64,000 nt of DNA from Felis catus. Taxonomy: Eukaryota. The translations under genes were made by a program, and so were the position numbers. The stretch spans positions 132,122,001 to 132,186,000 of the forward strand of contig NC_058370.1 of NCBI RefSeq assembly GCF_018350175.1. The letters are read 5' to 3'. A model generated the notes under the pieces. That model saw only the letters and a program-made list of their open reading frames with translations. It was not told the origin of the DNA and did not search any database. Positions 30,525-32,577 of this stretch are shown piece by piece; within the stretch, counting starts at the first letter, position 1; each line of letters begins with the position of its first letter.

Positions 30525-32109
30525 GTAATAAATTAAAATGTTAAAAATTACAGTGTCTTTTTTAATATTTTGCTGTTTGTGTTCAACTACAAATTTTCCT
30601 GATTGTAATGTACCTTTGCTTGGTATTTTAATGAACTGTGGACTACCAAATGTTGGAAACTATCTTAGTGTATATATCTTATTCATTGATTCAGTTAAAT
30701 GTAACACAGATTTGTTTACTAAATCACACACATATTAAATTCAACCTAAAATACATAAAGGGCTCATTTTTGTCATGTTTATGTGTATAATCATAATATT
30801 TTGAGATTTTGTAAGCATATTGACTGATTTAGTGATTTAGTAGACAGGATGTACGCACAGATCCGTAAGTGTCAGGTACGCATATTGTGTTTAATATTGC
30901 AAACCTCTTTTATGTTAGATAGCTTGGGAGGCAGGATCAAAATCTTCCTTAAGTTTTAATTTCACATCTATAAGTTTAGAATAACAACTTGTTTCTCATT
31001 TAAAGAGCAATAGAGATCAACCTTAAAAATGCAGATATTGATTAGTGGTTAAAGTGGGTGTGCCTTATATTTGAGGCAGAATTGGGACTAGGAAGTAAAT
31101 CCAGAGGTAATGATGAACGCAAAAAACATTTTGATGGTACCATTTTCATATGGCGACGTCATAGTAATTTAATTCTTGATTCAGAATAACCATTTATTGG
31201 CTTATTAGCTACTACGACATTTGTAAATATTGCTGTTTATTGAAATGAATGTGAAGATTTGGTTAGCTAAAGGATAAAGTATACACTGAGATCAGGTATC
31301 CAGTTTTGGGCATCCTTTTTGTTCCCTAACACAGGGCCTTCAGTGCATGAGTAATGATGTGCCCTGGCTGTGTTATCAGAGACCTTTGCATTCTAACCAC
31401 AGACATCTTAAGTGAAACTTTTCTTGAAACTAGTATTTCAAGGTTGAATTGGTGTTTTAGCAGTGAAAATGCTGAATTTTTCTGGGAGGTATGGGAAAAT
31501 TAAATACTATAAAATTAGCGATTATGATAGTAATTAAGCTGAAGAAGCTCAAAGAATTCAGAGACACTGAAGGTCATTCTGTGTGCCATGTGCAAAACAT
31601 CTAAAAATTAAATTTCTGTTATTAATATTGAACAATTAATGCATAGATGCTGTGCTATTTCAATAGCTTACAACATCTCGTGCTTTACAGCTTCCAAAGT
31701 GCTTCTATAATCTGTTCTCTCATTCAGCTTTCCATATATTCTGTCATTGGAACTTTAAAATATTTCTGTGGAGTAGAACAGATAGGTATTATTGTCTTTC
31801 TTTTTGGTTGAGACTCTAGAAGGGCAAATAATTTCAGAGTGAGGACAATAAGAACTCCAATCCTTTTGATACATTTTACTCTTCTGTGCAATTTGACAAG
31901 TTAATGATTTCACTACTTGTGATAACATACAGAATTCGTTTATGAAGCAGTTTTCAGACCAACTGGGGCATATTTTCAATTACATAACAGTTTTCATGTT
32001 CACGTCCTTGTAAATACTTTCTTTGTCATCCCCTTCCCTCCAGTTCAGCATTATGGTCTATTGGAGGCACATTTACTTTTTATTTTTGTTGCTTTTTGTT
32101 TTATTTTAG

Positions 32110-32171
32110 TTCTGGCCCCGCCCTTCGAATCATTCTTCACTGATTTTTTTAATACATTTTGCATAGCAACA
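32110..32171 (+). CDS. ROCK2: Candidate alternative ROCK2 penultimate exon (C-terminus ...KPSSGPALRIILH*)
   Basis: T-rich acceptor ttttag|, donor ACA|gtaagt, TGCATG and ACTAAT downstream; no transcript evidence available. Confidence 0.5.
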
Positions 32172-32577
32172 GTAAGTAATAGGGATTTCTTTCTCTCACA
32201 ACTATGCATGTAGCTGAAACTAATATCAAAACTGACCGTAAAATGTATAGGGTGTTTTGTGAATATTTTTCATCTAATATATACTCTTTGAAGCTTAAAG
32301 CATAGAGATGGGCACATTTAGGATGCAATTTTGTACTTTATGATGCATCTGCAGCATTATTTTCATTGTTAACATCTGTGCCTCCATTGCTTCATTAACT
32401 CATAGAATTGTATCTGTGTCTGTCTTACGTGAATCACCCTCCAGTTTCCATTTCATTTTGGGTGTCGCATTTTAGGAGTAGCATACACAAACTGGGGGGT
32501 ATACAGAAGAGAGTAACCGAGGTAGTAGTAGGTCATTTGAAAGTGTTACACGTGTAGCAAGTGAAGGAACTAAGGAT

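Follow-up and report, generated by a model that had tools for sequence, protein, structure and literature searches.

Among actomyosin kinases ROCK2 holds a central place, and it is also a drug target. It is described as forming a 120-nm dimer that is constitutively active, with its PH/C1 end located at the membrane and its C-terminal domains positioning it; scaffolds have been proposed to orient the molecule, and regulation is thought to act through its location and not through catalytic switching (PMC4686654). The sole splice variant named in the available part of PMC4653301 is ROCK2m, which carries exon 27', an in-frame insert of 57-59 residues before the PH domain. Muscle expression of this exon and its dependence on Rbfox and Rbm24 have been published (PMC4653301, PMC7532667 and PMC11380049, citing Pelosi 2007 and Singh 2014), and the mouse exon appears among the Rbfox targets in the supplement of PMC5989265. 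Two Rbm24-dependent Rock2 exons are reported for mouse muscle, namely the 171-nt exon 27' (0.389) and a 97-nt cassette in intron 32 (0.256) located at chr12:16982650-16982747 (PMC7532667 supplement). A more general precedent comes from alternative penultimate exons, which switch the C-terminus of a protein without decay of the mRNA; under the 50-nt rule given there, decay needs a stop codon more than 50 nt before the last junction (PMC7392665). ROCK2 is not mentioned in the main text of that study.

Intron 32 of cat ROCK2 contains a 62-nt exon that is a genuine, deeply conserved alternative C-terminus of a familiar regulatory kind, and its mechanism class is ordinary. The window, which is the whole 64,000-nt stretch of DNA analysed here, spans the 3' half of the ROCK2 gene, which is encoded on the + strand with its exons in ROCK2 order. 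Exon 32 matched 804 ROCK relatives, with identities of 93-100% among the 120 listed, and a jaguar ROCK2 protein tiles the exons of the window, mostly at 85-100%. Spliced mapping to goat ROCK2 placed exon 32, whose donor AG|GTAATA follows position 30524 and which is the upstream partner of the cassette. An earlier note on this sequence had proposed a candidate cassette exon with an alternative ROCK2 C-terminus, and the exon is real, having strong splice sites and a tail conserved in other species' proteins. All positions that the note gave for the exon, acceptors, donor, motifs and stop agreed with the sequence (Table 1).

Table 1. Features of the cat ROCK2 window that bear on the 62-nt exon. 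Scores come from a splice-site matrix trained on a small set of 22 acceptors and 21 donors of the same gene, and ranks are among the 632 AGs and 516 GTs of intron 32 (30525-39369).
Feature	Positions	Strand	Score	Rank	Remarks
Exon 27' (ROCK2m exon), 177 nt	25259..25435	+			59 aa; comparison exon; ACTAAT at +84, ACTAAC at +95 and TGCATG at +134
Exon 32, 214 nt	30311..30524	+			ends ...NKP plus AG, phase 2
Upstream acceptor of the earlier note	32029..32043	+	6.3	42/632	C-rich tract and CAG (AG 32042-32043)
Second upstream acceptor	32044..32048	+	8.2	15/632	AG 32047-32048
Polypyrimidine tract and main acceptor	32073..32109	+	10.5	4/632	T-rich; AG 32108-32109
62-nt cassette exon	32110..32171	+			completes Ser, encodes SGPALRIILH, TGA 32141-32143, then 28 nt of 3' UTR
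5' splice site GTAAGT	32172..32177	+	8.7	2/516	ACA|GTAAGT after 32171
TGCATG, RBFOX-type element	32205..32210	+			+34 from donor
ACTAAT, QKI-type element	32219..32224	+			+48 from donor
Start of last exon 33	39370..39373	+			C TAG completes ...KPS*; downstream partner of cassette

We infer from the sequence that the donor after 32171 is used and that the 62-nt exon is spliced in cat. The phase of exon 32 and the start of exon 33 imply that the product of inclusion reads NKPS-SGPALRIILH*, and by tblastn the tail of the exon at 32110 is identical at 11/11 residues to wolf protein P0204. In our proposal, the exon would act as a regulated, stop-carrying penultimate exon: when skipped, ROCK2 would end in ...NKPS*, and when included, in ...NKPS-SGPALRIILH*. 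Both forms occur in the gene models of other species, where 27 of 290 proteins bear the tail and 80 end in KPS. Alternative penultimate exons of the published kind are usually included, and a long, proline-rich frame of the last exon is read when they are skipped (PMC7392665). In ROCK2 the skipped form is the default, and the short, conserved tail comes with inclusion. The similarity lies in a C-terminus that is switched without decay. As the TGA ends only 28 nt upstream of the donor, within the 50-nt limit, the inclusion mRNA should escape nonsense-mediated decay and make protein, and we rejected the reading of the element as a poison exon. A terminal exon was likewise disfavoured relative to a cassette because no AATAAA or ATTAAA hexamer occurs in 32144-33200, roughly 1 kb past the stop. 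The minus strand at the locus offered merely short, stop-bounded frames.

To ask how widely the tail occurs, we used 290 ROCK2 proteins, which are automated NCBI and UniRef models and not a random sample. SSGPALRIILH* or a close variant ended 27 of these, from at least 23 species, none of them cat. Three came from the first collection, in which the 120 best matches to exon 32 were inspected; a query with the C-terminal 40 residues of camel ROCK2 then placed 16 tail-bearers at the top of its ranking, and further ones came from the members of 10 clusters. The 27 tails follow the pattern S-[STG]-[GA]-[PH]-[AMVP]-L-R-I-[IV]-L-H. All are 11 residues long from the junction Ser, and all share the invariant L, R, I, L and H of L-R-I-x-L-H-stop. 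Tail-bearers include mammals (wolf, sea otter, bat, goat/sheep, camel, three marsupials and platypus), other tetrapods (two turtles, a lizard, five frogs and a caecilian) and fish (sturgeon, paddlefish, gar, bowfin and arowana). Judged from these models, the exon is at least as old as the split between ray-finned fish and tetrapods.

The tail was absent from all 32 rodent and all 83 bird proteins, groups that were assigned by hand and in which many bird models are partial, and from a very small sample of 6 primate proteins. As other mammals and reptiles retain the tail, this pattern suggests loss or low use in rodents and birds, possibly through independent losses. Should mouse and rat truly lack the exon, it would have been out of reach of work in mouse. 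Such possible losses raise the question of whether the cat exon is itself a relic, recognisable but no longer included in this lineage, and the sole felid protein in the set (jaguar P0013) does end in a different, acidic tail. We regard a relic as very improbable, since the cat peptide is identical to those of wolf, sea otter, bat, goat, camel and platypus, and the splice sites and both downstream motifs are intact. Searching metagenome contigs with a degenerate pattern for the orthologous exon gave two matches, each an unrelated sequence. A look-up of sequencing runs returned both of two sampled words in 18 of 24 rows, for which no RNA source was listed, and weighs neither way. In several lizard and snake ROCK2 proteins (P0133, P0250, P0256-P0258 and P0260) the last Ser is preceded by a short insert, KEGFPP, and one reptile protein with this insert retains the LRIILH tail after it.

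The main acceptor is not the only one available. The earlier note had pointed to the acceptor at AG 32042-32043, which lies 66 nt upstream in the same open frame and would give a longer, hydrophobic form as a possible membrane anchor. This is the weakest of the three acceptors, and the note had overlooked AG 32047-32048, which outscores it (8.2 versus 6.3). In cat, splicing to the latter would place a stop 62 nt upstream of the donor, and the resulting mRNA is predicted to decay. In a Myotis model (P0214) the tail begins at the point equivalent to 32047-32048. Within the extension the bat peptide changes from one cat frame to another, although this is seen from the protein only and could reflect an assembly error. 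The frame of the extension thus differs between cat and bat. As an observation in its own right, three acceptors crowd into 66 nt (32044-32109), of which the Myotis model picks the middle one. The extension seems conserved between cat and bat as DNA and not as a frame, a pattern that fits conserved regulatory intron sequence.

We then considered whether the long form might be made from the acceptor at 32043 and tail-anchor ROCK2 in membranes. Its frame is open, the acceptor score of 6.3 is plausible, and the bat protein, which uses the adjacent upstream acceptor, likewise ends hydrophobic. Nevertheless, none of the 290 proteins contains the long form or uses this acceptor, and a direct protein search for it, which is a weak test, gave 7 candidates with none at E ≤ 10 and thus no match among longer proteins. 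The best 19-residue Kyte-Doolittle mean of the long form was 1.46, below the usual transmembrane cut-off of about 1.6. Stop-free frames upstream of ordinary acceptors in the same gene were more hydrophobic in 6 of 19 cases, with a seventh at 1.45, so that ordinary T-rich tracts equal or exceed it. The frame switch in the bat peptide, with the reservation given above, also speaks against a conserved anchor. Hence, the membrane-anchor idea is most likely wrong, and we would hardly expect such a form to be made and to function in this way. We prefer the caveat that the earlier note itself attached, namely that the T-rich tract may account for the hydrophobicity, and regard the upstream acceptors as minor or unproductive.

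A third ROCK2 end complicates comparison with mouse. Of the 290 proteins, 97 (e.g., P0013 and P0041) have an acidic C-terminus of the RLLDLAFKDWDW...VFDF type, which contains W-D-W and closes with V-F-D-F; its carriers are found among mammals, birds, turtles, lizards and a caecilian and include 10 of 32 rodent proteins. We take this tail to resemble acidic-aromatic adaptor-binding motifs. Its exon was not found in the three forward frames of the window, parts of whose intron 32 read N. Separately, a TGCATG at 38138, 1.2 kb before exon 33, stands about where a regulator of the acidic exon would be expected. The mouse 97-nt cassette shares with the cat exon its place in intron 32, a 214-nt upstream exon, the same last exon and an alternative C-terminus (PMC7532667 supplement). 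Yet the two differ in size (97 versus 62 nt) and in placing: the mouse exon lies 4548 nt after exon 32 and 1890 nt before the last exon, compared with 1586 and 7199 nt in cat. The published mouse event is therefore different from the 62-nt exon. Given its size and the 10 rodent proteins, the mouse exon most likely encodes the acidic DWDW tail, which at about 28 residues would contrast with the basic-hydrophobic 10 residues of the cat exon. In our proposal the ILH exon would compete with the acidic tail exon. Because inclusion of both tail exons is predicted to trigger decay, the three ROCK2 ends should be mutually exclusive as proteins.

We next examined what might regulate the 62-nt exon. RBFOX and QKI sites downstream of an exon promote its inclusion. 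The earlier note had claimed the same motifs here as at exon 27', and TGCATG and ACTAAY do follow both exons, albeit in reversed order and closer to the donor at the 62-nt exon. Both are alternative exons near the C-terminus and occur together in most tail-bearers, but exon 27' is an in-frame insert, whereas the 62-nt exon carries a stop and replaces the extreme end. A TGCATG within 150 nt of the donor was found at both alternative exons and at none of 21 constitutive donors; ACTAAY was within this distance of both, and also of 2 of the 21. Of 22 GTAAGT sites in the gene part of the window, just the one at 32172 had both motifs within 100 nt. Exon 27' itself is 177 nt (59 aa) in the window and 171 nt in mouse, and its splice sites are weak, with acceptor and donor each scoring about 3.3 with the gene-trained matrix.

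Support for the claim that the two exons are co-regulated is indirect. Exon 27' was present in 22 of 27 tail-bearing models, as against 37 of 79 KPS-ending models (one of the 80 being unscorable) and 56 of 97 acidic-tail models, in all of which exon combinations are often guessed from short reads. The enrichment corresponds to Fisher p values of 0.002 versus the KPS group and 0.026 versus the acidic group, with rows that are not independent. Co-regulation is plausible because TGCATG follows the alternative exons only and 22 of 27 models carry exon 27'. A competing explanation accepts the exon as real and conserved, with its control resting on different factors or taking place in different tissues (e.g., neurons or smooth muscle), such that the motifs are incidental. 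Their overall abundance is in keeping with chance: for the gene part of the window, 7.6 TGCATG and 30 of the common ACTAAY are expected, and 8 and 25, respectively, occur. Exon 27' is also missing from 5 of the 27 models that bear the tail. We consider this explanation quite unlikely in view of the TGCATG placed after both alternative exons and after 0 of 21 constitutive ones, together with the enrichment of exon 27' among tail-bearing models. RBFOX and QKI bound just downstream are instead likely to switch the 62-nt exon on with exon 27' in striated muscle.

In published splicing tables, the 62-nt exon was absent from the 16 Rock2 mentions in the available supplement of PMC7532667 and from the brain table of PMC5989265, whose only Rock2 row, in the 12 of 15 supplement files available, is the 171-nt exon. 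There were no Rock2 rows in the text supplements of PMC5577920 (1 file), PMC11653684 (1) and PMC4801060 (3), the large tables of which may lie elsewhere. For QKI dependence, ROCK2 did not appear in the 4 text supplement files of PMC7782589, and the full tables may again lie elsewhere.

The last six residues are near-invariant across bony vertebrates, which points to a specific partner or a degron reader. We give an even chance to the invariant L-R-I-x-L-H-COOH being a short docking motif. Since the kinase works as a ruler of fixed length and the tail lies at its PH/C1 end, such a motif would be expected to alter the anchoring or binding partners of ROCK2 and not its catalytic rate. The main rival is that the tail is a C-terminal degron or other damper through which ROCK2 kinase output falls during muscle maturation. 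In its favour, the hydrophobic tail is short and always occupies the extreme end, and alternative penultimate exons often alter protein stability (PMC7392665). Moreover, inclusion of Rock2 'C-terminal exons' has been said to impair kinase activity and aid myoblast fusion (PMC7532667, citing Singh 2014), but that sentence probably means the 171-nt and 97-nt mouse exons. The destabilising tails of PMC7392665 are long, proline-rich and poorly conserved, whereas the ROCK2 tail has 10 nearly invariant residues, and we therefore view a degron as unlikely. An AlphaFold2 model of PH-C1 plus tail (22 rows) was uninformative, having a mean pLDDT of 43 and low confidence throughout, including the PH domain. 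A predicted complex of the tail with PH-C1 scored 0.10 against a mark of 0.34 and carries no weight.

One candidate partner for a docking tail is calcineurin. P-A-L-R-I-I fits the loose expression for its PxIxIT docking motif, P[^PG][FILV][^PG][FILV][^PG] (10.1101/632547), which matches 23 of the 27 tails and fails in three marsupials and one caecilian. Nonetheless, this expression has 21,791 human matches, almost all of them non-binders (10.1101/632547), so the match is merely a lead, and the motif leaves the invariant terminal L-H unexplained. It remains a long shot that an old three-way C-terminal switch (-KPS, -LRIILH and -DWDW...VFDF) picks the scaffold at the kinase's membrane end, with -LRIILH as a muscle-spliced calcineurin-docking site that couples Ca2+ signalling to ROCK2 and was overlooked owing to the loss or rare use of the exon in rodents. 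The main proposal, taken whole, seems fairly probable: a conserved, regulated, stop-carrying exon that RBFOX and QKI would switch together with exon 27', and whose tail would serve in docking.

In the open-access literature on ROCK2 we found no description of the exon or tail, which subscription papers, splicing databases and large supplements may list, and the available parts of PMC11380049, PMC5803615, PMC8753376 and PMC6677818 added nothing further on either. The exon is already present in automated annotation and its function appears uncharacterised, although Singh 2014 or Pelosi 2007 may mention it. Elsewhere in the window, G+C content climbs to 63-71% at 56001-60000, which is probably the CpG island of an adjacent gene.
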